From contig OZ244922.1 in NCBI GenBank assembly GCA_965221905.1, positions 928,001 to 992,000 of the forward strand: a stretch of 64,000 bases of DNA. The letters are read 5' to 3'. The stretch is from Chloroflexota bacterium. Its GTDB lineage: Bacteria > Chloroflexota > UBA11872 > VXOZ01. A program made the position numbers and the translations under genes. Numbering within the stretch: the stretch's first letter is position 1; each line of letters starts with the position of its first letter. This document shows, one piece after another, positions 12,147 to 55,485 of this stretch. The notes beneath the pieces were generated by a model. It was not told the origin of the DNA, made no database searches, and saw nothing but the letters and a program-made list of their open reading frames with translations.

Positions 12147-14678
12147 GTGGCAGTTACTGAGCATACGCAAGAAGAACAATCGATCTCACTGGTTGTGCAG
12201 GGCATGACCTGTGCGGCATGCGTTTGGCGGATCGAGGAAGCCGTTACCCGAATTCCGGGCGTGCGCGAGGCAGCCGTAAACCTGGCGACGGAGCGGGCGC
12301 GGGTTACCTATGACCCGGCTGTGGTTACGCCCGCCCACATCGCCCATGCCGTGACGGATGCAGGTTATGCCCCTGCGGTCGTGAAGCGCACGCTGCGCGT
12401 GGGCGGCATGCAGGACGCCTCGGCGGTCAGCCGCGTAGAAGCAGCCCTCAGGGCCGTGCCGGGAGTCCTGCGAGCGGACCTGAACCTGGCGGCGGAGAAC
12501 GCGTTCATCGCCTATCTCCCCGACGTTACGGACGTGGCGGCATTGAAAAGTAGCGTTGCGGAGGCGGGATATACGCTGGAAGCCGCGGGGCATGAGCCGG
12601 AAACCGCCCACGGCGCGTCTATGCAGGCAGCCGGCAGCGCCGAGCAGCGCGCCATGAAGGTGCGCTTGGGCATCTCTCTGGCGCTCTCGTTCTTGGTCCT
12701 GCTTGGCAGCATGGGCAGTGTGCTTTTCCCCTCTCTGCGCGGCTGGTGGGGCGAAAACCCCTATCTGCTCTGGGCGCTGGCGACACCGGTGCAGTTTTGG
12801 GTGGGCTGGCGATTCTACCGGGGGGCATGGGCAACACTGAGGCACCTCACTTTTGACATGAACGCCCTCATCGTCATGGGCACCAGCGCAGCTTATTTCT
12901 ATAGCGTAGCGGCCGTGTTGGCGCCGGGGTTCTTTATCAGTCAAGCAGTGGATGGCGAAACGCCGCTGTACTTCGACACTGCGGCAGTCATCATTACGTT
13001 GATTCTCCTTGGGCGCTATCTCGAGGCGCGCGCGAAACGGCAAACCGCCGCAGCAATCCACGCATTGATGGACTTCCAACCGCAAATGGCGCGCATTGTC
13101 CGTGAAGGCACACCCCACGAGGTGCCGGTCGCCACGCTAGCCGTGGGCGACGTTGTCCAGGTGCGACCGGGCGAACGGGTGCCCGTGGATGGTCTTGTCT
13201 TGGAGGGGCAGAGCGCGGTTGATGAATCGATGCTTACCGGCGAGAGCATGCCCGTAGAGAAGACGCCAGGAGATGAAGTCGTCGGCGGAACGCTGAATAC
13301 GATAGGCTCCTTCACGTTCCGCGCCACGAGGATAGGAAAGGACACGGCGCTCGCACGCATCGTGCGCTTGATCGAAGAGGCCCAAGGTTCCAAAGCGCCG
13401 CTGCAGCGACTGGCGGATCGTATTGCCGCCCGCTTTGTACCCGCGGTGATCACGGTTGCGCTGGTGACGTTTTTCGCGTGGTATCTTCTGGGGCCGGAGC
13501 CGGCGCTTACGCGGGCGCTGCTGGCTTTCGTGGCGGTGCTGATAATTGCGTGCCCCTGTGCATTGGGACTGGCGACCCCGACGGCAGTCATGGTCGCGAT
13601 GGGCGCCGGCGCGGCAAAGGGCGTGCTGGTGCGCGACGAGGAAGCCCTCGAGCGCCTGCACAACGTGACGACGGTTGTGCTGGACAAGACGGGCACGCTC
13701 ACCCAAGGCAAGCCTGAGGTTACGGACGTTATCGCAGTTGATCGGATGGACTCCGGCGTGCGCCGGAACGACGAACCGGGAGACAGCAACCCTCAAAGCA
13801 ATGACAGCGAATCCGCAGCCGAAATGCTGTGGCTTGCCGCCGCAGCGGAGCAGGCAAGCGAGCACCCGTTGAGTCAGGCGGTGGTGCGCGCGGCACATGC
13901 CAGGTCACTCACATTGCCGCCGGCCAAGGAATTCATCGCCGCGCCGGGACGCGGTATCCGGGCAGAGGTGACAGGCAAGTTGATTCGCGTGGGCAACCAA
14001 GCCTACATGGAAGAGAGCAGCGTTGACTTAGGTGAGAATGCGGCGCGTGCCCGGTCGTTCCACGCAGAAGGCAAGACCGCCCTATTCGTAGCCGTGGATG
14101 GAATTGTGGCGGGTGTGATCGCGGTAGCCGATACGCTCAAACCAAGTGCCGCGCCCACAGTGCAGGCCCTCCGCGATAGAGGACTCACGGTGATGATGCT
14201 CACGGGTGATGCGGCGCGGACCGCGCAGGCGATTGCCGGGCAGCTTGCTATCGAGCACGTCTCGGCGGAAGTCTTGCCCGGACAAAAGGCGGCGGCAATC
14301 GAAGCGCGTCAGGCAGCAGGAGAAGTCGTCGCCATGGTCGGTGACGGCATCAATGATGCGCCGGCGCTCGCCCGCGCGGACGTGGGTATTGCGCTGGGGG
14401 CCGGTGCTGACGTGGCGCTGGAAGCTGCGGACATAACACTCATGGGTGACAGTCTTAGCGGTCTTGAGACGGCCTTTGCGCTTTCCCTGGCCACGCGCCG
14501 CACGATTTGGCAGAACCTCGGCTGGGCGTTTGGCTACAACGTGGTGCTTATTCCAGTAGCTGCGGGCGTGTTGTATCCCTTTATCGGCATCGTGCTAAAT
14601 CCGATGCTGGCGGCAGCGGCAATGGCGTTTTCCTCTGTGTCAGTAGTTATGAACTCCCTCCGTTTGCGTCGGCTGTAA
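12147..14678 (+). CDS. copA: Cu(I)-translocating P1B-1 ATPase
   Basis: GMTCAAC HMA domain, [26 protein letters not shown] and MxxSS motifs. Confidence 0.96.
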
Positions 14679-15604: not shown

Positions 15605-16936
15605 ATGCTTACACGTCGTTCGTTACTCGCGGGCTCGGCGGTGCTCGCCGCCGGCTGCAGCACGGTGGGGAATCCACTTACTCCGCCGAGCGCGCCGCTG
15701 GATGCTGAGATAAAGGTGGCGGCATTCACGAGATCCATCTATCTCTCAATGCCGTATGGCAATTACGTACCGGGTGACGATAATGAAGTCAGATACGAAC
15801 GGGCCCTGGCAGCACTTGAGGAAGATGAGGATAACGCGTACGGCCCGAAGCGCGGCGGATACTCGCTGGCGCTGCGGTTTGTAGAAGACTTTGCACCGCA
15901 GATCGAGCAGTCGAAAACTGTGGAAGAGGCAGAGGCGTCTCGGGAGGCGAGGCTGGATGCAGTTGCCGAGACGTTGGATTTGCTTGAAGCGGACCTTGTG
16001 ACGGTTTGGCCGGAAGAGGCGCGATGGTGGGGTGAGAACGGACTCTTGCTGCCCTTAGACCGTTTCAGCGGCGCCGGGGAGTCTGAGCTCAATCAGGAAT
16101 TCTTCCCCACCGTGCTCAATCAGTACCGGCGAGACGGTGCGCTCTATGCACTGCCGGTGGACGCAGCACCGCTCATGCTCTTCTACGATCCGCGACACTT
16201 CACAAAGCAAGGCGTGCCGCCGGTGGATGCGACTTGGAATTGGGACGACCTGGTGAGGAGTGCCACCAAACTCACCACTTCCAAGCCGGATGGCAACATG
16301 GCGCGCTGGGGCCTGATCGCACATGGGCAAGGGGTTGCGTGGGCGCTTTGGCAAAATGGGGCGACCTTATTCGATGCAGACACGCAGCAGTGCCGCTTGC
16401 CGGAACCGTCGGCGGTTGAAGCCCTGCAGTTCGTGCACGACCTGCTACACAAGCACCGCGTCTCACCGCTGGCAGAGATGAGGGACTTATGGGACTACCT
16501 TTGGGTAACGCCGCCGGCCATGCTGTACGATTTCTCTCCCATGATTCTCAATCAGAGGAGTAGCTTTCGCATGGCGGCGCTGCCCCGGGGCAAGGTATCC
16601 GCAACGCCGGTGAGAACCCATCTAGGGATCGGCATTGCCGCCCGCACGCAAAGAACGGAGGCGGCATTTGCCGCGCTGAAAGGGTTCAACCTTGCTATGC
16701 AGGAGCACGTGGCAATTCCTGCTGGCAGGGAGGCGGTGGCGCGCTTGGCAGACATCCGCACGGACATTAGCCCGGCGGAAGTTGCAGCAGTGCAGCACTC
16801 TCTGGAACACGGCCGCGAGTGGCCGCAAGACGGCCTGACGCTGCAAATCATGTATGAATTAACGCAGGGCCTCGGGCGCGGCGACGACGTAGCGACCATT
16901 GTCAATCAGGCCTGCTCCCTCGCGCACGAATTCTAG
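15605..16936 (+). CDS. Divergent extracellular solute-binding lipoprotein, Tat-type (paralog 1)
   Basis: TRRSLL...LAAGC signal; LLLPLD, GALYALP and WNWDDL SBP motifs. Confidence 0.8.
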   Translation: MLTRRSLLAGSAVLAAGCSTVGNPLTPPSAPLDAEIKVAAFTRSIYLSMPYGNYVPGDDNEVRYERALAALEEDEDNAYGPKRGGYSLALRFVEDFAPQIEQSKTVEEAEASREARLDAVAETLDLLEADLVTVWPEEARWWGENGLLLPLDRFSGAGESELNQEFFPTVLNQYRRDGALYALPVDAAPLMLFYDPRHFTKQGVPPVDATWNWDDLVRSATKLTTSKPDGNMARWGLIAHGQGVAWALWQNGATLFDADTQQCRLPEPSAVEALQFVHDLLHKHRVSPLAEMRDLWDYLWVTPPAMLYDFSPMILNQRSSFRMAALPRGKVSATPVRTHLGIGIAARTQRTEAAFAALKGFNLAMQEHVAIPAGREAVARLADIRTDISPAEVAAVQHSLEHGREWPQDGLTLQIMYELTQGLGRGDDVATIVNQACSLAHEF

Positions 16937-17041
16937 CAATCGGGCAAGCTGCCGTTCCCCGGTTACTAAGGTGTGCGTGAGTTAATACAGGGAAATCAGC
17001 GAAATACCTTAGCCGCCGTTAAATTGAATAGGATCAGAGCT

Positions 17042-18403
17042 ATGCTGTCACGGCGATCGTTATTGGCAAGTTCCGCTGCGCTCGCCGCGGGTTGCAGCAC
17101 GCTCGAGTCTGCGTTCTCGCCGCCCGGTCTGCCCAAGGAGACAGAGATAGACTGGGCAGTTTTCAGTGGATTCATCAGCCTCTATGATCCGGAGGGAATA
17201 CTGAACTCTGATGAGATTGTGCTCCAGCGCGGGCTGGCGGCGTTGGCGGAGGACAAGGAAAACCCATACGGCCCGCAGCGTGGGCGATACAACGTCACGC
17301 TGCGTTATGCGGAGGACTACTTGCCGGAACTGGCTCCGCCGCCAGAGAACCGCGAAGAAGTCTTAGAGTATTTTGCAGAGTTACTGGATGCCTTTTCGGC
17401 TGACCTCGTGGCGCTGCCACCATTTCTCGCAAGACTATTGGGCGAGGAAGGTCTCGTGTTGCCCTTAGACCGATTCATGGGTGCGGAGAAGTCTGCGATC
17501 GAGGCGTCATTCTTCCCCAGCGTGCTCGAGCCGGGTCGGGGCGCGGGCGGGCTCTATGCCCTGCCGGTGGGCGCGCTGCCGCAGATGGTGACGTATGATG
17601 CGGTGTTCTTCACGAAGTGGGGCGTACGGCCGCCGGACGGAAGTTGGGACTGGGATGATTTGGTGAGCAATGCGGCGCGGCTGACGCAGCGCGATGCGGA
17701 TGGCGAGGTGACGCGCTGGGGCGTGGTTACGCACGGGGGCATCATTGGCGGGATTTGGTGGACGCTTTGGCAAAACGAAGCAGGCGTATTAGAGCCGGAA
17801 ACGATGCGGTGCCGGCTACAAGAACCGGACGCATTAGAAGCCTTGCAGTTCTTCCGCGACATGCTGCATACGCACCGGGTCTCGCCGGCAGTAAGTAGAG
17901 GCGAACTCTATAAGCTATGGACGGGAGTGACGCCGCACTTTGCGATGAAATACAGCACACCAGCGCTTGTCCCGACTACCCTTGACTTCCCTTTGGCGGA
18001 GTTGCCCCGGGGCAAAGTGCACGCCGTGCCGGTGAGCGCAGACTTAAGCATTGCCATTGCCGCCAGGACGGAGAAGGCGGAGGCGGCGTACACGGCGCTC
18101 AGGGGCGTCGTGGGCGTCATGCAAGAGCGCGTGCACGTGCCCGCCGAGCGTGAGGCGCTCGCGCGCCTTGGCGAGTTTCGCAAGAGGCTCAGGCCCGATG
18201 AAGTAACGGCGATCCAGCGTTCAATGGAACATGGGCACGCTATGCCGCAGTTTGGCGTTCAATACGCTGCCATGGGAAGCATAATGGAGGGTCTGGTACG
18301 CGGCGACGACGTGGCAACGGTGGTGGGCACGGCATGTGCACGCATAGGCGAGCACATGCAGTTTTGCGAGGCTAACCCCATAGTCTTTAGGTGTCTCATC
18401 TAA
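17042..18403 (+). CDS. Divergent extracellular solute-binding lipoprotein, Tat-type (paralog 2)
   Basis: SRRSLL...LAAGC; same motif set as paralog 1. Confidence 0.8.
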   Translation: MLSRRSLLASSAALAAGCSTLESAFSPPGLPKETEIDWAVFSGFISLYDPEGILNSDEIVLQRGLAALAEDKENPYGPQRGRYNVTLRYAEDYLPELAPPPENREEVLEYFAELLDAFSADLVALPPFLARLLGEEGLVLPLDRFMGAEKSAIEASFFPSVLEPGRGAGGLYALPVGALPQMVTYDAVFFTKWGVRPPDGSWDWDDLVSNAARLTQRDADGEVTRWGVVTHGGIIGGIWWTLWQNEAGVLEPETMRCRLQEPDALEALQFFRDMLHTHRVSPAVSRGELYKLWTGVTPHFAMKYSTPALVPTTLDFPLAELPRGKVHAVPVSADLSIAIAARTEKAEAAYTALRGVVGVMQERVHVPAEREALARLGEFRKRLRPDEVTAIQRSMEHGHAMPQFGVQYAAMGSIMEGLVRGDDVATVVGTACARIGEHMQFCEANPIVFRCLI

Positions 18404-18675
18404 AAGCCTCCGCCGTTGGGCGGTCCGCATCGTCGCGGAGCCGTTGCGCACTGTGTCAAAAGCAGTCAATTGCTATATCGTGGCGGAAGGCATCCGTGGT
18501 TAAGGGTGCTATGTGCATTGGGAAAGCGAACCCGTAGCGCGGGGGCTAGTCCTCCACATCCTCAAGAGGGAATTGAACGTTTCTCGATCCTTGCCTATCA
18601 GGAATGGCTCACTTCACGCGCAGAGGGCGAGTCAGCAGTAGTGAGGCTGCAGCCGTCATGAGCAGAGACAGTGCG

Positions 18676-20106
18676 ATGCTTTCACGACGAACTTTACTCG
18701 CGGGCTCGGCGGCGCTCGCTGCCGGATGCAGCTCGCTGGGTTCTCCGCTATCACCTCCGAGCCTGCCCAAAGTGACGGAGTTGAACTGGGCAGTAATCGG
18801 CGATTTTCCCAGCCTGCATGATCCCGAAGGTTTACTGCTCTCGAATGAGAGCGTGCTCCAGGGAGGATTGGCGGCGTTGGCGGAAGACAAGGAAAACCCA
18901 TACGGTCCGGAGCGTGGACGTTTCAACATCAAACTGCGCTATGCAGAGCGCTGGCCGAAGCAGGACTCTCCGCCAAAAGACCTTGAGGAGTGGCTGGCGT
19001 ATTTCGTGGAGGTGCTGGACGCCTTCTCCGCCGATCTTGTGACGGTGTCACCCTTACTCGCGAATTTTCTGACTGAACATGGCCTCATGATGCCCTTGGA
19101 TCGTTTCTTGGGTAAAGAGAAAGCGGGAATTGAGGCTGAATTCTTCTCTAGCGTGCTTGAGCCGCACCGCGGCCCGGGTGGACTCTATGCCCTGCCGGTG
19201 GCCGCGTTGCCGCAGATGGTGACATATGACGCGGTGTACTTCGACAGGAGAGGCGTACCGCCGGTGGACAGTAGTTGGGACTGGGACGTTTTGGTGCGTA
19301 ATGCGGAGCGGCTGACGCTGCGCCATGAGAACGGCGAAGTGGCGCGCTGGGGCGTTGTCACCCTTGGGAGCGTAATTGAAGGTATTTGGTGGGCGCTATG
19401 GCAAAACGAAGCGAACATGGTTGATCCGAAATCGCTGCAATGTCGGCTACAAGAACCGGCCTCATTCGAGGCCTTGCAGTTTTTCCGCGATCTCATCCAT
19501 ACGCACCACGTCTCTCCTCCACTAGACAGTGGTCACCGCCGTAATTTGTGGTCCGGCGTGACACCGCTATTCGCCATGCAATACAGCACACCAGCACTTG
19601 CTCCGACTACCCTTGACTTTCGTTTGGCGGAGCTGCCCCAGGGCAGGGCGCGCGCCGTGCCGGTGGGCGTAGACTTTAGCATCGCCATTGCCGCTAGAAC
19701 GGAGAAAGCGGAAGCGGCGTACGTAGCGCTGCGGGGCGTTGTCGGCGCCATGCAGAGATTCGTACGTGTGCCCGCAGAGCGTGAAACGCTCGCGCGACTG
19801 GGTGAGATTCGCAAGCGGCTGCGCCCTGAGGAAGTCTCTGCGATTCTGCGCTCCATGGAGCATGGGCACAAGCTGCCGCGATTTGGAGCAGAGCACCTTG
19901 CCATGGGCCGCATTGTTTGGGGTCTGGCGCGGGGTGAGGACGTGGCGTCGGTAGTGAATTCGGCCTGTAGGTTCATGGATGAGCAGCGAGAGTTCTGTTT
20001 ACAGAACCCCGATGACCCACGCTGTATCTTCTCTTGGCCCGCTCCAATAGAATTACTGCAATTTAGTGGTCCTCCTGCACCGCCAAGGCAAATTACGCCG
20101 CCCTAA
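18676..20106 (+). CDS. Divergent extracellular solute-binding lipoprotein, Tat-type (paralog 3)
   Basis: SRRTLL...LAAGC; same motif set, closest to paralog 2. Confidence 0.8.
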   Translation: MLSRRTLLAGSAALAAGCSSLGSPLSPPSLPKVTELNWAVIGDFPSLHDPEGLLLSNESVLQGGLAALAEDKENPYGPERGRFNIKLRYAERWPKQDSPPKDLEEWLAYFVEVLDAFSADLVTVSPLLANFLTEHGLMMPLDRFLGKEKAGIEAEFFSSVLEPHRGPGGLYALPVAALPQMVTYDAVYFDRRGVPPVDSSWDWDVLVRNAERLTLRHENGEVARWGVVTLGSVIEGIWWALWQNEANMVDPKSLQCRLQEPASFEALQFFRDLIHTHHVSPPLDSGHRRNLWSGVTPLFAMQYSTPALAPTTLDFRLAELPQGRARAVPVGVDFSIAIAARTEKAEAAYVALRGVVGAMQRFVRVPAERETLARLGEIRKRLRPEEVSAILRSMEHGHKLPRFGAEHLAMGRIVWGLARGEDVASVVNSACRFMDEQREFCLQNPDDPRCIFSWPAPIELLQFSGPPAPPRQITPP

Positions 20107-20205: not shown

Positions 20206-21636
20206 CTAATTCCATTCAGGCCCGATCATATCCAGGGGTGGAGTGGTTGTGCTGAGCAGGCGCTCGGTGAGGAGGCCGTGGTATTCGCGCATGCGGGCAT
20301 GGGCGGCAGGATCGTGTGCCAGGTTGCGGAATTCGTGTGGGTCTTCCTGCAGGTCGTAGAATTCGCTGCCCAACTCCCGGCCCCAGTAGGCGTACTTGTA
20401 GCGGTTGGTGATGAGCGCCGTGCCGCGCGTGACGCGATCGCCGTGTATGTAATCGGATAGCGCCATGCCGGGCAGGTTCGCCTTGCCCTCGATAACCGGA
20501 CGCAGGCTGGTGGCGGCCATCGCCTCAGGTATCGGCACACCGGCGTAGTCGAGGATTGTCGGCGCGATCTGGAAGGTCTCCACCACGTCCTCCGCCACCG
20601 GTGTGCGCGCCTGACCGGTCGGAGGTACCACGATGAGGGGCACCCGCGCCGAGGGTTCCCAAAACGTACCTTTGCCGCCGCGCGACCAATCGCCCATGTG
20701 GTCGCCGTGGTCGCTGGCATAGATTATGAGCGTATTGTCCAGCGTACCGGCGTCCGCCAGCGTCTGCACTAACTTACCCACCATGTCGTCGATCATGGTG
20801 CAGAGACCCCAGTACTTGGCAATAGCTTTGCGGATGATGCGGTCGTCGGGCTCCTTGGCAAAGCGCCCGCCGCCGTTTTGCAGGTGCTTGGGTTTGTCGC
20901 TGTCGTCGGCCAGGTACGTGGCGGGCATGTCGATTTCCGCCGGATCATACATGCTGGCGTAGGGCTCCGGCGGGTCCAACGGGCCGTGGGGGCCGCAGAT
21001 GCCGCACCAGGCAAAGAAGGGCCGGTCACGGCTCTCGCGCATGAAACCGGCGGTGTTGTTCGTGATCCAGGTGTCGATGTAGTCTTCGTAGGGCAGCACG
21101 TTGGTGATGGCCGTCATCTCTTTGTACTCAGGCTGGCGGCGCTGGGCGTATATTTTTTCATAGCCGCCCGGATGGCGCTCCTCCAGCCACGCGGCGTAGA
21201 GCGGCCCCAAAGGTCCCGGCCCAAAATGCGTGCCGGAGGATTCCGTCCAGCGTGAGCCTTTGCCTTCGGTCAAGATCGTGAAACGGAAACCCTTTGGCGG
21301 CCACATGTGTATCTTGCCGAATGCCGCCGTATAGTAACCTGCCGCGTCGTGGAGATGTTCCATGAAGGTCAACTCCGACGGGGGCAGACCCGGTGTGCGG
21401 TCAATGGGAAGGGCCTGGAAGGTCACGCCGTGCTGGTGGATATAGCGTCCCGTCTGGATACATGCGCGGGCAGGCGTACAAATGGTGTTCTGCGTGTAGG
21501 GACGGACAAAGCGAGTGCCTTTGGCGGCCAGAGCGTCGATATGAGGTGTCTTGACCTTCTTGTTGCCGTAGCAGCCGAGCGTATCCCAGCGCTGTTGATC
21601 TGTGGTGATGAGCAAAACGTTCGGAGCTTGCGCCAT
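20206..21636 (-). CDS. Formylglycine-dependent sulfatase
   Basis: PNVLLITTDQ, CTPAR (CxPxR), GKIH, PHxP, SDHG and YDLxxDPxExxNL motifs. Confidence 0.95.
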   Translation of the reverse strand: MAQAPNVLLITTDQQRWDTLGCYGNKKVKTPHIDALAAKGTRFVRPYTQNTICTPARACIQTGRYIHQHGVTFQALPIDRTPGLPPSELTFMEHLHDAAGYYTAAFGKIHMWPPKGFRFTILTEGKGSRWTESSGTHFGPGPLGPLYAAWLEERHPGGYEKIYAQRRQPEYKEMTAITNVLPYEDYIDTWITNNTAGFMRESRDRPFFAWCGICGPHGPLDPPEPYASMYDPAEIDMPATYLADDSDKPKHLQNGGGRFAKEPDDRIIRKAIAKYWGLCTMIDDMVGKLVQTLADAGTLDNTLIIYASDHGDHMGDWSRGGKGTFWEPSARVPLIVVPPTGQARTPVAEDVVETFQIAPTILDYAGVPIPEAMAATSLRPVIEGKANLPGMALSDYIHGDRVTRGTALITNRYKYAYWGRELGSEFYDLQEDPHEFRNLAHDPAAHARMREYHGLLTERLLSTTTPPLDMIGPEWN

Positions 21637-21988
21637 GAAAATGCCTCCCGACGTGGTGCTTGAAGCAAAAGAACTACTGTGTCGCAACCGATTATATACT
21701 CTGATGTTCCTTGAGGTTTACTCGCGATTCAGGCAACATCTCAGCGCACGGTATGAAAACGTACGAGGGCGAGAGCGCCGAGTTTGGTCGCCAGTGCATG
21801 AACCAATCCGCGCACCGTTTACCGCCGGTAGCGGCGCAGTGCCACGGCTGCTAGTAGTTTAGACTCAATGAATGCCCACTTATCTGGAACAGATTTAGTG
21901 CCGACTGCGACGCAATCTAGGATAGATCGCGAGCTACCGGCAGTGTCGCGGGCGGTTAGAATACGCTGCTTGCTGGGTTTGAGATCGT

Positions 21989-48234: not shown

Positions 48235-48374
48235 ATAGTAAGATGATGGCTGCAACAACTGTTGACAGCTTGTGTCTAAAGCGGCTGGTGGCGGGTGCTT
48301 TTAGACATACTTAGCGGTCTCGCCTGTTCGGTTCGTGCTAGACGTGTCATACTTTTGGCGTTAGGCGAGACGAA

Positions 48375-48462
48375 CCGTCCATACTTCGACAAGCTCAGCA
48401 CGAACGGTTCTAGTCAAATTGGGAACGATCCCGTTCGCCCTGAGCTTGTCGAAGGGTGAACG
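48375..48462. repeat. Family B repeats in inverted arrangement
   Basis: CTTCGACAAGCTCAGCACGAACGG ... CCGTTCGCCCTGAGCTTGTCGAAGGG. Confidence 0.85.
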
Positions 48463-48534
48463 AAACTCTAGCACGTTTCCAGCATGGCGAGCAGCCAGTC
48501 TCGTAGGCAAACACAACTGGAGGAATTGTACATA

Positions 48535-48579
48535 ATGCGCGCCCTCTATTCGAACAATCGCGGTGAAGTCTACTCGTGA
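48535..48579 (+). pseudogene. 14-codon remnant duplicating the 5' end of the downstream dehydrogenase
   Basis: MRALYSNNRGEVYS* versus MRALYSNNRGEIYI at 48994; has its own GGAGG RBS. Confidence 0.75.
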
Positions 48580-48681
48580 TAGTGAAAGTCTCTAACCGTT
48601 CGTGCTGAGCTTGTCGAAGCATGAATGGCAATTTGCCAACTTGAAGGAGATACCGTTTACCCTTCGATCCTTCGGCAAGCT

Positions 48682-48919
48682 CAGGACAGGCACGCTCAGG
48701 GCGAACGGTTTATGACTAGGGGTATTCGTTCGGCTCAGTCATCGGCATACACAGGACAGGCATGCTCAGGGCGAATGGTTTATGACTAGGGGTATTCCGT
48801 TCGGCTCAGTCATCGGCATACAAAGGACAGACAAGCTCAGGGCGAACGGTTTATGACTAGGGGTATTCGTTCGGCTCAGTCTTCGAAATACACAGAGCAG
48901 GCATGCCATGGGCGAACGG
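48682..48919. repeat. Tandem repeat of about 70 bp, 3 full units plus a partial one, built on family B
   Basis: GCTCAGGGCGAA(C/T)GGTTTATGACTAGGGGTATTC(C)GTTCGGCTCAGTC occurs three times. Confidence 0.92.
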
Positions 48920-48993
48920 CCTATTGTGCAAGTTGAATGTTAAAACGACCATTCGATTGAGACAGCAGAAAAGGATTGGAGAAGCTTCACATA

Positions 48994-50049
48994 ATGCGTG
49001 CCCTCTATTCGAACAATCGCGGCGAAATCTACATCAAAGAGGTGCCGGAGCCCGCGCTGCAAGGGTCCGGCGTGGTGATTCGGACGCTGGCTTCGGTCTT
49101 TGGGGCCGGTTCCGAGATGGCGGGCGTCGGGCGGCGGCGCAAGGCGCTGCAGGAAGGGCAAGACCCCGGCGCGTTCTCAGAGAAGGCCCACAGCTACCAG
49201 TCCGCCGGAGAGATTCTGCAGGTGTCGCCTGACTTGCAAGACCGCTTCCAGCCGGGCGATCTGGTCGCGGCGGCAGGCGGCGGCTTCGGCTTCCACGCCG
49301 AGCAAGGGTACGTGCCCAAGCACTCGTTTGCCAAGATTCCGCCGGGCCTCGCGCCCATCGAGGCCGCGACCACGAACGTCGGTCTCACGGCGTTCCACGC
49401 CATCCGCCGCGCGGTGCTGCTGCCGGGCGAGACGGCGGTGGTGCTCGGCCTCGGCATGGTGGGGCAGATCGCGGCGCAGCTTGTCCAAGTTACGGGTGGG
49501 CAGGCGCTCGGCGTTGACCTCCATGAGTTCCGCCTGGATAAAGCCCGTGAACTCGGCGCGGCGGCGACGGCCGGAGGCAGCGACGACGAGATAGCCGCCG
49601 CGGTGGCTGACTTCACGGACGGCAGGGGCGCGGACGCGGTTTTCATCGCGACCTCGGCGCGGGTGCGCGGTCCGGCCTCCCTGGCGGTGCGGCTGGTGCG
49701 GGAGAGCGGGCGCGTGCTGCTGATCGGGCGCGTGATCTGGGACTTCACGCCCACGCACCCGGACGCCGACCCCCACACCAAGGAAATCAACATCCATTGG
49801 GTGAACGGCCGCGGCCCCGGCAGCCGCGAGCGCGACTACCTGCGCGGCGAGGCAGACTACCCGTCTCGCTTCGTGCCCTGGGACCAAGAGCGCAACCTGC
49901 AATCCCTGCTGGATCTCCAAGCCGCCGGTAAAGTGCGCGTCGCGCCGCTAATCACCCACCGTTTTCCATTCGACCAAGCCCCCCAAGCCGCCGAAGTCGC
50001 CATCAACCTCCCCGCCGAAGCCCTCGGCGTGGCGCTGGAGTATGCCTAA
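48994..50049 (+). CDS. MDR (zinc-binding alcohol dehydrogenase-like) oxidoreductase lacking the canonical Zn Cys/His ligands
   Basis: GLGMVG Rossmann motif, GRGADAV and PLITHRFP. Confidence 0.88.
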   Translation: MRALYSNNRGEIYIKEVPEPALQGSGVVIRTLASVFGAGSEMAGVGRRRKALQEGQDPGAFSEKAHSYQSAGEILQVSPDLQDRFQPGDLVAAAGGGFGFHAEQGYVPKHSFAKIPPGLAPIEAATTNVGLTAFHAIRRAVLLPGETAVVLGLGMVGQIAAQLVQVTGGQALGVDLHEFRLDKARELGAAATAGGSDDEIAAAVADFTDGRGADAVFIATSARVRGPASLAVRLVRESGRVLLIGRVIWDFTPTHPDADPHTKEINIHWVNGRGPGSRERDYLRGEADYPSRFVPWDQERNLQSLLDLQAAGKVRVAPLITHRFPFDQAPQAAEVAINLPAEALGVALEYA

Positions 50050-50496: not shown

Positions 50497-51822
50497 TTAC
50501 TCGCGATCCGAGCCCCCCGTCTGCTGGTACTCGCGTACGAAGGAACAGGCTTGGTTGACGACAGTAGCAACGTCGTCGCCGCGCACGAGGTCGCCAACTG
50601 CATTGTCCATGGCATGCCAAGCCGGCACATTCCGTGGCAGCCCCCGTCCAGCTTCTAGCGACCGCTGGATCGCCTCAACCTCTTCCGGTTGGAGGTCTGG
50701 CCGCAATTCCCCTAGTCGCGCCACCGCCTCCCTTTCCGCAGGCACTACGACAAACTGCTGCATTACATGCACCAAACCCTTGAGCGCGGTGTAGGCCGCC
50801 TCCGGTTTGGCTGTCCGCGCAGCAATTGCGATCCCCATTTGCGCGTACACTGGCACGCTGCGCACTGTGCCTCGCGGTATCTCCGCCAGATGATAGTGTC
50901 CGCGCGGAGGACGAAACGGTGGAATCTCATACACCATCGCCGGCGGAAACCCCGCTGACTCGAAGATTAGTTTCCATAAGTCTCTATTTACAGCCGGAGA
51001 GACGCGATGGGTATGGATCAGCCCACGGAAGAACTTCAGCGCTTCGATCGCTGCCGGCTCCTGCAACTGGCACTGCAGCGTCGCCGGCTCCACCGCCGCC
51101 GCTTCGTTCTGCCACAGCGCCCACCAGATCCCATACCTATGCGTTGCCAGCCCCCAGCGCAGCACTGAGCCATCCTCCCTACGCCTCGTCAGTTTCACCG
51201 CATTGTCTACAAGGTCACTCCAGTCCCAGCTACCGTCCACTAGTGGCACCTGCTCCAATTCGAAGTAGTCGGGATCGTAGTACAGCATTAGCGGGCCGGC
51301 ATTTAACGGCAAGGCGTAGAGTGCACTCTGTGTTCGAAACTGATCGAGCACACTTGGGAAGAATATGCGGTCAGGTGCAGGGCCATCAAAGCTGCTAAAC
51401 TGCTCTAAGGGCAGCAACACACCCATCTCTCCCAATGCCCTCGCCCGCCCAGGTGACACGGTCACGAGGTCCGCGTCGAGTTCGTGCAGCCACGCCGCAG
51501 CTTCGTCCAATGCCGGTGCCTGCTCCACATGCCGCAAAGTTAGACTATACCTGCCTTGCTTAGGACCGTGCAGGTTCTCCTTGTCCTCCTCAAGTGCTGA
51601 CAGCGCTCGCTGCAGTTGCTCCTCGCCACCGACTCCTCTTGGACTAGCTAGGCCAGTATACTGACTTGAGGCCGCCCAAGTGAGTGCAGCTTCTTGGGGA
51701 AGGCCTGGTACTGAGAAATGTAACCGCGGCACACTGCATCCGGCAGCGAGGACTGCTAAACTTGCCACAAACAATCGGCGTGAAATCACTGCAAACATCC
51801 TTAGTGTTCGACTCTTGGTCAT
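50497..51822 (-). CDS. Divergent extracellular solute-binding lipoprotein, Tat-type (paralog 4)
   Basis: SRRLF...LAAGC; shares EDKENxxGPxxGRY, WALWQNEA, CxLQEP, IAIAART and RGDDVATVVNQAC with the 15.6-20.1 kb genes. Confidence 0.85.
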   Translation of the reverse strand: MTKSRTLRMFAVISRRLFVASLAVLAAGCSVPRLHFSVPGLPQEAALTWAASSQYTGLASPRGVGGEEQLQRALSALEEDKENLHGPKQGRYSLTLRHVEQAPALDEAAAWLHELDADLVTVSPGRARALGEMGVLLPLEQFSSFDGPAPDRIFFPSVLDQFRTQSALYALPLNAGPLMLYYDPDYFELEQVPLVDGSWDWSDLVDNAVKLTRRREDGSVLRWGLATHRYGIWWALWQNEAAAVEPATLQCQLQEPAAIEALKFFRGLIHTHRVSPAVNRDLWKLIFESAGFPPAMVYEIPPFRPPRGHYHLAEIPRGTVRSVPVYAQMGIAIAARTAKPEAAYTALKGLVHVMQQFVVVPAEREAVARLGELRPDLQPEEVEAIQRSLEAGRGLPRNVPAWHAMDNAVGDLVRGDDVATVVNQACSFVREYQQTGGSDRE

Positions 51823-51857
51823 ATTCCCCCAGCACGCTCAAACCATAAGACGGGCGA

Positions 51858-51903
51858 CAGAGCACCCATGGAGGGCAATAGTTCCCCCCATGCAGGGGCT
51901 CTG
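51858..51903. other. Imperfect hairpin between the peptide gene and the lipoprotein gene
   Basis: CAGAGC-ACCCATGG-AGGG...CCCC-CCATG-CAGG-GGCTCTG. Confidence 0.45.
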
Positions 51904-51958
51904 CGCTTGTTCTCCTGCCTAGGCTTCCTGTAAAGCGAAGGCTGAGGTATTCATGAAT

Positions 51959-52279
51959 TCAACACTCAGCTTCGCAGTCGCGAAAGCTATAGAGAGCAGG
52001 GCAATTTGCTCCCGTGTAGCAGTCATTCCCTTCTTGCCTCCAGTACCTCGCTTTCTTGGGGAAAACGCAATGGGAGTCGCCGCAGAATCCATCTTCATTT
52101 GACCGGGCAGTTTCACAAAAGTGGCTCCCTCCACAATGATCGGCACGTGCTACAGTGGCAAAACCAGCAGTTAGAACGGCAGCACCGCCCGCTGCTCGGG
52201 CAAGTCTTCCCAGAAATCCACGTCGGTTCATGCTGGCTTTCGCCAGGCTAATACTCGCGTTCGCAATAAGCTTGTCCAT
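51959..52279 (-). CDS. Tat-exported cysteine-rich peptide precursor (46-aa leader plus 60-aa core with 8 Cys)
   Basis: GGGAGGT RBS; NRRGFLG Tat motif; hydrophobic stretch; ARA|D cleavage site; core ends in Cys. Confidence 0.85.
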   Translation of the reverse strand: MDKLIANASISLAKASMNRRGFLGRLARAAGGAAVLTAGFATVARADHCGGSHFCETARSNEDGFCGDSHCVFPKKARYWRQEGNDCYTGANCPALYSFRDCEAEC

Positions 52280-52362
52280 GGGTTTTACCTCCCATGCTTT
52301 GCATGCATTGCGTCTCTGATGCGACTCTCGCGTGGGGCGTCGTTACACTTCGCGTGCAGACG

Positions 52363-52935
52363 TCACGCGCTCACATTCTTTGGCAAGCTGCCGGTCGTCA
52401 CATCAGTAGCGAGCAGCTCGCCTAGCACATCCACATTGTTCACCACCCCCTTTCCAGCGACTTTGCCATCGGCATCGACCACGAAACCGTACGGCGTCCA
52501 ACTACTGCCGTACAAGTCGGCTATCTCGTGCTCCTGCTGGATCACCAGCGGACACGAGAGCTTGAATTCTGCAATCATCTCCCGGTTCTGCTCGTGGCTG
52601 CCGCCGCTTACGAGCACTAAGCGCGCGCCACGTTCCTGGATGCGGTCCATCTCCCCATTGAGGCTTCCAAACAGTTCCTTGCAGGGCGGGCAGGTGGGAT
52701 GGACGAACAGCACCAGCAGCCGTTCGCCAACCATGGTCTCCAGGTCAACCGCCCCATTGAGACCCTCTCCCTGGAAGAGCGGCGCTTTGTCACCGACCGC
52801 GATACCGTTCTCGCGCTCTTCCCCGACGCGTAGGCGCAAATCGCCAATCTGCCGCATGAGGCCGATGACGACGAAGGCGAGCAGGCCGATGAGGACCCAT
52901 TGCAACAGGTACGATGCCAGCCAGATGCCTTCCAT
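52363..52935 (-). CDS. MauD-like membrane-anchored thioredoxin-fold protein
   Basis: W...LMRQIGxLxxRV N-terminal signature, GxxVGxxAP, FVHPTCPPCK, TPYGFVVDxxG and KGVVN; AGGAGG RBS. Confidence 0.88.
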   Translation of the reverse strand: MEGIWLASYLLQWVLIGLLAFVVIGLMRQIGDLRLRVGEERENGIAVGDKAPLFQGEGLNGAVDLETMVGERLLVLFVHPTCPPCKELFGSLNGEMDRIQERGARLVLVSGGSHEQNREMIAEFKLSCPLVIQQEHEIADLYGSSWTPYGFVVDADGKVAGKGVVNNVDVLGELLATDVTTGSLPKNVSA

Positions 52936-52980
52936 GACTTCTGCCTCCTGGTCCACTTTGGCGACCGGTTGCCGTTGATG

Positions 52981-53106
52981 CTTCGACCCTTCGACAAGCT
53001 CAGGACAGGCAAGCTCAGCACGAACGGATACGCGAATGCTCACCATAGTGTGTTAGAGCCTAGCCCCTCCGCCCCGCCTGGATTCCGGCTTGCGCCGGAA
53101 CGACGG
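52981..53106. repeat. Nested family B copy plus a family A half between mauE-like and mauD-like genes
   Basis: CTTCGACCCTTCGACAAGCTCAGGACAGGCAAGCTCAGCACGAACGG; CTGGATTCCGGCTTGCGCCGGAACGACGG. Confidence 0.85.
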
Positions 53107-53120
53107 ATAGTTGCTTTCCT

Positions 53121-53663
53121 TCAATATGATTGGGAAATAGTGCGCAGCCGCAGCAGTTCGGCGGCGACGAAAGCCACCGCCCACGCCCCGACCACGAACA
53201 AGGTAGCTCCTGCCACGCTGCTGGCGTCCCCAGTGAGGCCGGCCTCCACTAGCCAAGTTGCACCGGCAGTGGGCGCCAGGAGTACAAGCAATGTCAGGAT
53301 GACGACCTGCTTGATGATGGTGGCTTTGCCCAGCGGCTGACGGCCCGCGCCGAAGCAGTAGCAATCGATCCCGCCCCGGCCCTGTGCTAACGCCACGGAC
53401 GAGGCTACGATGAAAGCTGCCACTAGGCTTACGCCCAACCACACACCCCATGCCACGGCAAGGCCCGTGACGAGCAAAGTGCCGCAGATGAGTTCCAATA
53501 CGGGGATCGCGCCACTCACCGGCTGGAGCGCGCGCGCCGGCACAAGACCAAATCCCTGCGCGGCTGCTTTTTACTCGGACAGGTGCAGCAACTTGGCGGG
53601 GGCAGCAAGGAGAAAAACGCCACCCACCAGGAATTGGAGCACGAGCACGCCAGTTGCAAGCAT
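53121..53663 (-). pseudogene. MauE/DoxX-family membrane protein with an in-frame TAA at codon 31 (53571-53573)
   Basis: MLATGVLVLQFLVGGVFLLAAPAKLLHLSE*KAAAQGFGLVP...IPVLELICG...IDCYCFG; GGAAGGA RBS; same frame throughout. Confidence 0.85.
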
Positions 53664-54159
53664 TAGCCCGTTCCTTCCAGATCGTGAAGGCTCATTCAGA
53701 TGAACCTTCACGATCCCCTACCCCTCTCACGTACATTTGTAGTAGTTCAAATGTAGCATACAATTGACCAAAGTCAAGCAATAAGACATCGAAAATAGTA
53801 ACAACATGTCACATACGCAAAAAACCTCCGATTACTTTTACAGAGCACGTAGCGGGCAAACACGTCAGGCGTCCGCCATGCTAATTTTCCACTTCCGTTG
53901 CCGGCTAGCGCAGATTAGTCCCAGTGCCCTGTGTGCGATCGCCAATAAAGAGACGCCTACAGCGAATGCGTAGTATCCTAAGGGAAGAAATCTGTTATCC
54001 GTCCGAAGGCAAGAGTCACGCACGGCTATGACTGTGGAACAAGACGGTATACGCGCGTGACTCTTGTGTCTACGAAAGCGAGTTAGCGGTTAATGGTTAG
54101 TCACAGAGCTAACCAAACTGTCATACTTCGGTTCAGATTGGTAAAAAGCGTAAGACTGC

Positions 54160-54918
54160 ATGCGTGCACAGGGTTCGGCAAATCGCGACCGTTTCGATGA
54201 ACTCTATCTGGCGACATACGCCGACTTGACCGGCGACCGTTACACGGTGCCGGAGGTGGAGGCTATCGAGCGGTTGCTGGAGCTGCGGCCGGGGTCGACC
54301 TTGCTTGATCTGGCGTGCGGACAGGGCCGCCATCTCATTCACCTGGCGATCCAGGGCTATTCCGTGATCGGGTTGGACCGCTCAGACGTGCTCATGCGCC
54401 AGGCATACAAGGACGGGCAGATACGCGGTTTGGACGTCAACCTTGTGCAGGGCGACATGCGCGCGCTGCCGTTCGACTGCGCGTTCGACGGTGTCGTCAA
54501 TTGGTTTACGGCGCTTGGATACTTGGAGAGCGATGAAGAAGACCAGAAGGTGCTGAACGACGTGGCGGCGGTGTTGCGTCCCGGCGGCCGTTTCGTGATG
54601 GAGATGGCTAATCCGATTCAGACCTACCAGAAGCAGGCCTGGGAGGACTCGGAGATGGCATCCACCGGCTACGCCATGGTGAATAGGAATCGCATGGACT
54701 ACGAGACGGGATGCCAACACACGAGCCGCGTCATAATTACGCCTGATGGCGAGCGCATCGAGCGCGAACTCAAGGTGCGCGTCTACCTGCCGCATGAGCT
54801 CGAGCGCATGCTGAATATTGCCGGCATGGAACGGCTCGGCTTCTTCGGCAGCCTGGATGGTGAGCCGCTGGCGCCGGAAAGCAGCCGTCTTATCCTTACC
54901 GCCAGGCGGATGGCATAA
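54160..54918 (+). CDS. Class I SAM-dependent methyltransferase
   Basis: LDLACGQGRH, GDMR, FTALGY and LRPGG motifs; same subfamily as 24754..25503. Confidence 0.92.
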   Translation: MRAQGSANRDRFDELYLATYADLTGDRYTVPEVEAIERLLELRPGSTLLDLACGQGRHLIHLAIQGYSVIGLDRSDVLMRQAYKDGQIRGLDVNLVQGDMRALPFDCAFDGVVNWFTALGYLESDEEDQKVLNDVAAVLRPGGRFVMEMANPIQTYQKQAWEDSEMASTGYAMVNRNRMDYETGCQHTSRVIITPDGERIERELKVRVYLPHELERMLNIAGMERLGFFGSLDGEPLAPESSRLILTARRMA

Positions 54919-55005: not shown

Positions 55006-55485
55006 ATGCTACAGCGTCCTATGGTGTGGAAATCGCTCTTATACGGTGGCGGGATGGGGCTGGCGGTGCTGCTGCTGGTTGGCATTCCCAGCGGCGTAAT
55101 CCCGAACCAATTCTTCGTCCGCCCGCTCGATGCGCGGCCCACGGACTACCTCTTCCTTGGCATCATTACTGCCTTGGCGGTTGTGCTGGGCGCGACGTAC
55201 GGCGTGCCGACGGTCTGCCCGCCTCAGGATACGAAAGCGCTCGGCAGTGGGCTGCTGCTTTTCATCGGTGTCGGCTGTCCGGTCTGCAACAAAGTGGTGC
55301 TTGCCTTGGCAGGCGCCAGCGGCGCGTTGACCTATTTTGAGCCGATCCAGCCGCTCTTTTCGCTTGGTTCTATCGTCTTGATGAGCGTCGCGCTCGTGCT
55401 ACGCGTGCGTGACATTAGACGCTCGACAGGAATTGGACAACCTGCGGCTGCAGCGATACAGCCGTCACCGCCTCCCCGCCAGTGA
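55006..55485 (+). CDS. Small integral membrane protein with a CPVC motif
   Basis: GxPSGVIPNxFFxR and GCPVCNKVVLxLxGASGALTYFEPIQP; 4-5 TM helices. Confidence 0.8.
   Translation: MLQRPMVWKSLLYGGGMGLAVLLLVGIPSGVIPNQFFVRPLDARPTDYLFLGIITALAVVLGATYGVPTVCPPQDTKALGSGLLLFIGVGCPVCNKVVLALAGASGALTYFEPIQPLFSLGSIVLMSVALVLRVRDIRRSTGIGQPAAAAIQPSPPPRQ

Follow-up and report, generated by a model that had tools for sequence, protein, structure and literature searches.

Three kinds of described loci are close to the one reported here. In the mauF-B-E-D-A cluster of methylamine dehydrogenase, mauE and mauD stand together with a small Cys-rich client, MauA, which carries a leader for twin-arginine translocation (Tat). 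According to the available part of a 2026 preprint, MauE is a generalist DsbB-like oxidase with a CXC-F-G active site that replaces DsbB in E. coli, MauA is found in only 10.2% of MauE-bearing species, and MauE had earlier been proposed as a possible reductase (bioRxiv 10.64898/2026.03.05.709764). The available part of the decRiPPter study of 2020 describes, in Streptomyces, three candidate families of peptides made on the ribosome and modified after translation (RiPPs) with mauE, one of them also with mauD, whose precursors have at least eight Cys residues (PMC7794033). The use of MauE and MauD outside methylamine dehydrogenase is already known. In this study, a stretch of 64,000 nucleotides of a Chloroflexota bacterium was analyzed (positions 928,001 to 992,000 of the forward strand of contig OZ244922.1, assembly GCA_965221905.1). 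This stretch is called the window, and its own numbering is used below. On its minus strand, positions 50497-53663 carry four co-oriented genes: a mauE-like gene, a mauD-like gene, a gene for a 106-aa precursor with a Tat leader (the mini-protein), and a gene for a Tat lipoprotein resembling substrate-binding proteins (SBPs). I give a probability of roughly 0.5 to the reading that the four genes form a cassette dedicated to the oxidative folding of a secreted, lineage-restricted mini-protein which acts with the neighbouring lipoprotein, by the mechanism set out below.

Comparison with known mauE loci

The cassette shares with the methylamine dehydrogenase cluster the order of mauE, mauD, and a small Cys-rich client with a Tat leader. 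The mini-protein also resembles MauA in its long n-region before the twin-arginine (RR) motif. The annotated clusters of the Paracoccus yeei plasmid NZ_CP020445.2 and of Novosphingobium pNL2 were taken as references. When the mini-protein was compared with two MauA sequences using hhalign, the leaders aligned and nothing else did (pairwise E values of 3e-5 and 5e-4). Unlike MauA, the mini-protein has a core of about 60 residues rather than about 130, which does not align, and it lacks the conserved Trp pair for tryptophan tryptophylquinone. The MauD of the window lies far below the equivalog cut-off, and in place of a beta-propeller heavy chain the mini-protein has an SBP-like lipoprotein as its partner. 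MauB, MauG, MauF, and amicyanin are absent from the window's genome. This genome (99.64% complete) consists of one contig of 3.52 Mb, and in the whole of it no match was found to MauA (PF02975) or MauB (PF06433) at E ≤ 1, or to MauG (PF03150) over the cut-off. The cassette is not a methylamine dehydrogenase system. A first-pass annotation, made from the letters of the window alone, had claimed that MauE and MauD are used here without methylamine dehydrogenase, and the genome-wide lack of MauA, MauB, and MauG bears this out.

Like the MauE proteins of the preprint, the window's MauE has the CXC-F-G motif, occurs without MauA, and adjoins a thioredoxin-fold partner. Unlike the generalist, it occurs only at the cassettes, it is absent where the client is absent, and its genome also has DsbB. 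Between the two Cys stands Tyr in the window, and mostly Gly or Ala in the available part of the preprint (bioRxiv 10.64898/2026.03.05.709764). A dedicated, client-linked MauE beside DsbB would complement the "generalist" picture drawn there. With the decRiPPter families, the cassette has in common mauE and mauD beside a small precursor of at least eight Cys, other mau genes being absent. By the description available, the families are set apart by phylum and by peptide family, and the system of the window is further distinguished by its Tat leader, its tandem arrays, and its obligatory SBP-like lipoprotein neighbour (PMC7794033). The term "new system" in the first-pass annotation was too strong, since the generalist MauE and the occurrence of mauE/mauD beside precursors with at least eight Cys are in print, as far as these two sources are available. 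A literature search over titles and abstract openings gave nothing on the mini-protein family or its pairing with an orphan SBP-type Tat lipoprotein, and nothing on arrays bearing footprints of mauD or on the docking of a protein hairpin into the cleft of an SBP. What is new is the pairing of the mini-protein with the lipoprotein.

The mini-protein family

The precursor gene (51959-52279, minus strand) is preceded by a GGGAGG Shine-Dalgarno sequence 8-9 nt 5′ of its ATG at 52279. The precursor consists of a 16-residue N-terminal extension, the twin-arginine signal beginning with MNRRGFLGRL, an ARA|DH cleavage-like site, and a core of about 60 residues with eight Cys and one Trp. Since Met17 is replaced by Ile in the closest orthologue of the window's peptide, Met1 must be the start, and the N-terminal extension is translated. 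In leader codons 18-30, which cover the RR region, 46% of the codon pairs differ synonymously and 17% non-synonymously; this excess of synonymous differences indicates constraint on the leader at the protein level. A leader shared with MauA as a specific "address tag" was also considered. A similar long n-region before MNRRGFLG is present on an unrelated family-5-like SBP of Tropicimonas (L020), so that a specific tag common to MauA is not claimed.

The family comprises 34 clusters at 90% identity. A search of 1.84 billion proteins with the mini-protein profile retrieved 14 representatives at E ≤ 0.001, and uncultured Chloroflexota account for 14 of the 15 loci, including all the confirmed ones. 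No family was assigned to the mini-protein in Pfam or NCBIfam at E ≤ 0.1. A search of PDB with a profile of 24 homologues gave only Tat-signal matches at E ≤ 10, Foldseek of the model against PDB gave nothing at E ≤ 0.001, and the ESM Atlas gave no usable match to the core. The first-pass annotation described a non-MauA client, to be refuted if the core aligned to MauA, a high-potential iron-sulfur protein (HiPIP), or another known family; these searches, together with the hhalign result, gave no such match of the core. In the AlphaFold2 (AF2) model, the core folds into three long beta strands, and its predicted local distance difference test (pLDDT) score is about 85-88.

Within the family, the leader hardly varies, and the core is strongly divergent. 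Only C49, C55, C87, and C93 are invariant among the Cys residues of the core. Among the 23 full-length cores, the number of Cys is 8, 10, or 12 and always even; Trp varies from none to three, none of them conserved. The net charge ranges from -9 to +3 with a mean of -2, so that the cores are mostly anionic, and they are rich in His (up to 10 residues) with HC motifs. Conserved leaders with divergent, even-Cys cores, in a cassette retained in other genomes, were what had been predicted from the window. The additional suggestion of a defensin- or knottin-like toxin is not indicated by the anionic cores and the lack of a fold match at E ≤ 0.001. RiPP precursors also combine a conserved leader with a variable core; the only "modification" genes seen here are those for MauE and MauD.

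For 11 pairs of related cores of the same type, the ratio of non-synonymous to synonymous substitution rates (dN/dS) was estimated. It was 0.11-0.37 in nine pairs, which indicates purifying selection on the cores. One pair, with no more than seven changes, gave 0.99, and for the last no ratio could be computed. By these sequence comparisons, the cores are functional and their types old.

The composition of the cores bears on one rival explanation. Tat normally exports folded proteins, and the leader would be explained if the mini-protein carried a cofactor assembled in the cytoplasm (Fe-S or another metal), MauE and MauD being reductants or isomerases. The Cys/His-rich cores with HC motifs are consistent with this, as is the reductase role of MauE proposed in a study cited in the available part of bioRxiv 10.64898/2026.03.05.709764. 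The Cys pattern, with only four invariant residues and totals of 8, 10, or 12, always even, argues against it, no ferredoxin, HiPIP, or rubredoxin match was found in Pfam, NCBIfam, or PDB, and the AF2 model has a confident all-beta core without any ligand. I regard a cofactor-carrying mini-protein as very improbable.

Distribution and pairing of the cassettes

I examined 17 genomes, which make up the whole order in the collection searched and belong to a single genus. The mini-protein is present in 12 of them, with one to eight copies each. MauE is present in ten, all of which have the mini-protein, and in none of the five genomes devoid of the mini-protein; since the 17 genomes are close kin, this co-occurrence is a pattern rather than a statistical test. 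The window's genome has three cassettes of the mauE-mauD-mini-protein-lipoprotein type. In relatives, the cassettes expand to arrays of the form mauE-mauD-[mini-protein-SBP(1-3)]n.

In total, 24 distinct mini-protein genes were counted from 25 rows, because L006 and L017 overlap. The 5′ neighbour is a full-length mauD in 13 cases, a mauD split by an insertion in one, and only a 3′ fragment of mauD in seven, while three genes have no trace of mauD. The 3′ fragments are read as the footprint of unit duplication. Every one of the 24 genes is followed by a gene for an SBP-like lipoprotein on the same strand. The peptide type matches the lipoprotein subtype throughout (9/9, 6/6, 3/3, 2/2, 3/3, and 2/2, as read from the table), and the type found in the window recurs in L006.

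Several loci have been eroded. In L016 (6480-7312), mauE, mauD, and about the first six leader codons have been deleted, leaving the methyltransferase gene found beside the window's cassette, a mini-protein gene that can start only at Met17, the lipoprotein gene, and a gene resembling an alcohol dehydrogenase (ADH). L016 is a natural variant with neither MauE/MauD nor the N-terminal extension. Decay of the arrays is common, with single in-frame stops or splits in many array members, among them SBP-like copies (e.g., G000:C1:943605-944939 and 1097400-1098689), and the mini-protein gene at L008:3460-3789 has a TGA inside the RR motif. A regular-expression screen of the genome for more small Cys-rich Tat ORFs (open reading frames) beside SBP arrays gave 174 candidates, mostly spurious ones of high GC content; only three profile-positive mini-protein genes adjoin SBP arrays in the window's genome.

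The lipoprotein and the predicted complex

The lipoprotein of the window (441 aa; 50497-51822, minus strand) is an orphan protein of the CUT1 type. It has a twin-arginine signal (SRR...) with an LAAGC lipobox and matches SBP_bac_1 (PF01547) with 49.8 bits (cut-off 26). Its AF2 model has a pLDDT of 84.9. A profile search of PDB retrieved the CUT1 sugar-binding protein AbnE (6rjy, 1.5e-20), and Foldseek of the model retrieved Lmo0181 (5f7v, 4.1e-22), with TM-scores of about 0.6-0.7 to CUT1 proteins. The two-lobe fold and the SBP_bac_1 match are shared with AbnE, Lmo0181, and TMBP (1eu8). Unlike these CUT1 SBPs, the lipoprotein has no adjacent permease or ATPase operon that could be found, it belongs to a set of about 21 matches in tandem arrays, and its predicted ligand is a protein hairpin instead of a sugar.

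The subfamily is sharply separate in the window's genome; full-length members score over 500 bits and fragments 78-486, while dozens of ordinary SBPs score below 100. It has 21 matches there in seven places, several of them split or with stops. No importer permease (Pfam BPD_transp_1) was matched by an ORF of 150 aa or longer lying up to 7 kb from any of the seven places; a transporter may be encoded at a distance. Besides the lipobox Cys, all 43 SBP-like lipoproteins share two further invariant Cys, C251 and C426 (numbering of the window's protein). If these two are joined by a disulfide, as may be the case, the lipoprotein itself would be a second client of MauD/MauE.

A complex of lipoprotein residues 42-441 and core residues 47-106 was predicted, both given as alignments, together with three controls. 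The median score was 0.86 (runs of 0.89, 0.00, and 0.86), compared with 0.02 for the best control. Of 80 solved complexes, 58 attain a score of 0.86, as do two of 110 mismatched pairs; the calibration is rough because custom alignments were used here. Over the runs, contact agreement was at least 0% and partner pLDDT at least 45. In the model, a hairpin from N61 to C71, with F65 at its tip, lies between the two lobes of the lipoprotein and contacts residues 54-58, 176, 228-231, 300, 326, and 328. This inter-lobe region is the site of sugar ligands in the SBP fold. The predicted complex supports binding of the mini-protein to the lipoprotein. The first-pass annotation had proposed the lipoprotein as a receptor or immunity factor; the controlled prediction upholds it as a putative binding partner.

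Over 43 paralogues, the 41 predicted interface residues have a mean entropy of 2.34 bits, against 1.20 bits for the other 353 (Mann-Whitney p = 3e-13), in a comparison that took in all lipoprotein residues, surface and buried. This variability fits co-diversification with the variable cores, and it equally fits paralogues with different small ligands.

These data also bear on a reading in which the neighbourhood is coincidental. The lipoproteins would then be ordinary oligosaccharide SBPs serving distant ABC (ATP-binding cassette) importers, and the mini-protein an unrelated client of MauE/MauD, e.g., a structural or metal-binding surface protein. The profile and fold matches to CUT1 sugar-binding proteins (6rjy and 5f7v) are in line with this, as are the dozens of other CUT1 SBPs in the window's genome, the presence of the subfamily in all 17 genomes regardless of the mini-protein, and the His-rich cores with up to 10 His. 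It is difficult to reconcile with the peptide-then-SBP order in 24 of 24 cases with matched subtypes, the complex score of 0.86 against 0.02 for the controls, and the lack of a neighbouring importer permease at all seven loci. A coincidental neighbourhood seems unlikely.

Antagonism was considered as well. Halocin C8 is a Tat-exported Cys-rich peptide whose own immunity protein, HalI, is encoded alongside, and LanI-type immunity to lantibiotics relies on lipoproteins that bind the cognate peptide. By analogy, the mini-protein could be a bacteriocin-like antagonist that the SBP-like lipoprotein sequesters on the producer, and the peptide-less SBP-like paralogues could be orphan immunity genes or targets on sensitive cells. 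The accessory presence of the mini-protein (12 of 17 genomes, zero to eight copies), the arrays of matched types with many decayed copies, and the tight binding predicted with the adjoining lipoprotein would suit such a role. A weak fold likeness to the disulfide-rich laterosporulin was also seen (TM-score of 0.54 on the target), although it is not significant (E 1.4). On the other hand, most membrane-active peptides differ from the mostly anionic cores, positive selection is not apparent from pairwise dN/dS, and genes for lysis, export, or processing are absent. I consider a bacteriocin-like role improbable.

The mauD and mauE genes

The mauD-like gene (52363-52935, minus strand) probably starts at 52935 (MEGIW). 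It encodes a protein with AhpC-TSA/Redoxin matches and the RQIG and CPPC motifs. From the sequence, the hydrophobic N-terminus (LASYLLQWVLIGLLAFVVIGL) would be a membrane anchor for a CxxC-bearing thioredoxin fold. To TIGR02661 (MauD), the score is 65.5 bits against an equivalog cut-off of 188.6, with profile positions 3-179 of 189 covered, and the gene is classified on this basis as MauD-like, not as a MauD equivalog. Its paralogues and orthologues are 77-95% identical.

The mauE-like gene (53121-53663, minus strand) encodes a predicted protein of the MauE/DoxX type with four transmembrane segments. Its active site, CXC followed by F-G, reads DCYCFGAG. The gene runs from the ATG at 53663 to the stop at 53121, and an in-frame TAA at 53573-53571 leaves an open frame only from the GTG at 53543 (a 140-aa ORF). 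This ORF matches Pfam MauE (PF07291) with E 2.4e-12 and 47.7 bits (cut-off 27), and the gene translated through its stop scores 73.1 bits, with one TAA marked. In nine related copies, the codon is TTC (Phe), two base changes away from TAA. At 53571-53572, contigs of the sequencing run X1 carry the window's letters at a depth of about 118 of 187 and the paralogue's letters at 69, so that the TAA is not peculiar to the assembly; run X1 may itself be the source sample of the window. The copy is probably a pseudogene. The other two copies of this genome are an intact one in L005 (196 aa, L005:8031-8621) and a frameshifted one in L004. Since the window's mauE is broken, MauE activity would come from the intact copy, 1.7 Mb away. 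The three cassettes are the only places in the genome with Pfam MauE matches over the cut-off. A DsbB homologue is encoded elsewhere, which means that MauE is not the only oxidase of the window's genome; no VKOR was found in it. In the genome of one relative, an additional MauE with a better score (G016:C1:1266249-1266629, 106.6 bits) lies away from the two places in which that genome's mini-protein matches cluster.

A high-copy repeat resembling a miniature inverted-repeat transposable element (52972-53029, strand unassigned) is inserted between mauE and mauD. At about 52972-53029, the summed contig depth reaches about 26,000 in run X1, compared with about 100-350 beside it. Its translation yields words of the PELVEG, SLSKG, and FDKLR type, and similar words occur at about 48295-48790. 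The same repeat lies between mauE and mauD in the L005 copy, whereas in the RNA-library contigs of relatives the two genes are joined by 102-112 other letters without the repeat. The repeat gives rise to a spurious longer mauD ORF of 227 aa. The four co-oriented genes with CYCFG, RQIG, CPPC, and the 106-aa precursor of eight Cys and one Trp were found just as first described; the TAA in mauE and this repeat had been overlooked. In two RNA-library runs, contigs of relatives are 90-95% alike over mauD-mauE and a piece of the leader, and such contigs cannot show transcription.

Proposed mechanism

The following mechanism is proposed for the cassette as a dedicated folding module. The twin-arginine leader would direct the precursor to export via Tat, and cleavage would occur after ARA. 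Outside the membrane, its 8-12 Cys would be oxidized to four to six disulfides by the anchored CPPC protein MauD, and MauD would be re-oxidized by the CXC membrane protein MauE. The basis for the proposed oxidation step is what has been published on the activity of MauE proteins, together with the strict gene linkage. According to the model of the complex, the folded three-stranded beta mini-protein would then place its hairpin (N61-C71, tipped by F65) in the cleft where the lipoprotein holds ligands, and the outcome may be a surface-tethered, type-specific pair. Mini-protein types and lipoprotein subtypes would be inherited as matched units, duplicated behind a single mauE-mauD head.

Several observations weigh against this picture of a dedicated cassette with a paired lipoprotein. 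The lipoprotein subfamily is present in 17 of 17 genomes (2-25 matches), including the five without the mini-protein, which suggests that the lipoproteins are older and more general than the mini-protein module, and most of its 21 matches in the window's genome have no adjoining mini-protein. The complex score fell to 0.00 in one run of three, where the partner pLDDT was 46. SBP paralogues vary in any case at their cleft and surface residues, and duplication of whole units would by itself yield matched subtypes, which alone do not show interaction. As for the oxidases, two of the three mauE copies of the window's genome are broken, the mini-protein occurs without a match to MauE in two genomes (95% and 96% complete), and L016 has lost both mauE and mauD. 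Finally, Tat export of folded proteins sits badly with disulfide folding after export.

My best guess is that the lipoprotein receives, tethers, or sequesters (much as an immunity protein would) a secreted ligand that is polymorphic, and that it is not a protein of nutrient uptake; among the roles of the pair, a type-specific ligand held by a receptor or tether is ranked first. A bolder and more doubtful idea is that polymorphic, Tat-exported, disulfide-locked mini-proteins are protein ligands that fill the sugar-binding cleft of their cognates, orphan SBP-type lipoproteins of the surface. Such filling would amount to a new kind of recognition between a protein ligand and an SBP, with its own MauE/MauD maturation and with matched units diversified by tandem duplication. 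If true, such recognition may serve self/non-self discrimination, antagonism with immunity, or surface display. CUT1-type binding proteins are usually regarded as the sugar receptors of importers, and the docking, if true, would mean that they also serve as type-specific receptors of small folded proteins. The cassette would then be a compact natural test case, with one small client, one thioredoxin, and one membrane oxidase, for the old puzzle of a Tat leader on a protein with a disulfide-dependent fold.

Other features of the window

A weak promoter-like site (TTGACT-16-TACATT with TG; 53750-53777, minus strand) lies upstream of mauE. Three promoter-like sites were counted in the region, compared with 1.7 ± 1.4 in shuffled sequences, and this count is at chance level. 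The count of terminator-like sites in the region was likewise no higher than chance.

Three tandem SBP-like paralogues of the same subfamily lie at 15605-20103 on the plus strand, with no mini-protein gene adjoining. One of the three has an internal TAG. The trio is flanked by genes for a copper-type P-type ATPase with HMA domains and for a sulfatase (12147-14678 and 20206-21687).

On the plus strand beside the cassette lie a gene for a generic S-adenosylmethionine-dependent methyltransferase (54160-54918), with a weak match to daptide methyltransferases (72.6 bits; cut-off 175), and a gene resembling zinc-dependent ADHs (48976-50049). The two genes flank the cassette in the window, L011, L016, and L018, and they do not adjoin the other two cassettes of the window's genome. 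They look less like parts of the system than like the conserved site of its insertion. At 55006-55485 on the plus strand, two genes away from the cassette, a 159-aa multi-pass membrane protein with VCPP and GCPVCNK motifs is encoded. Pfam and NCBIfam give no family for it; it may be a further thiol or metal protein of the membrane.

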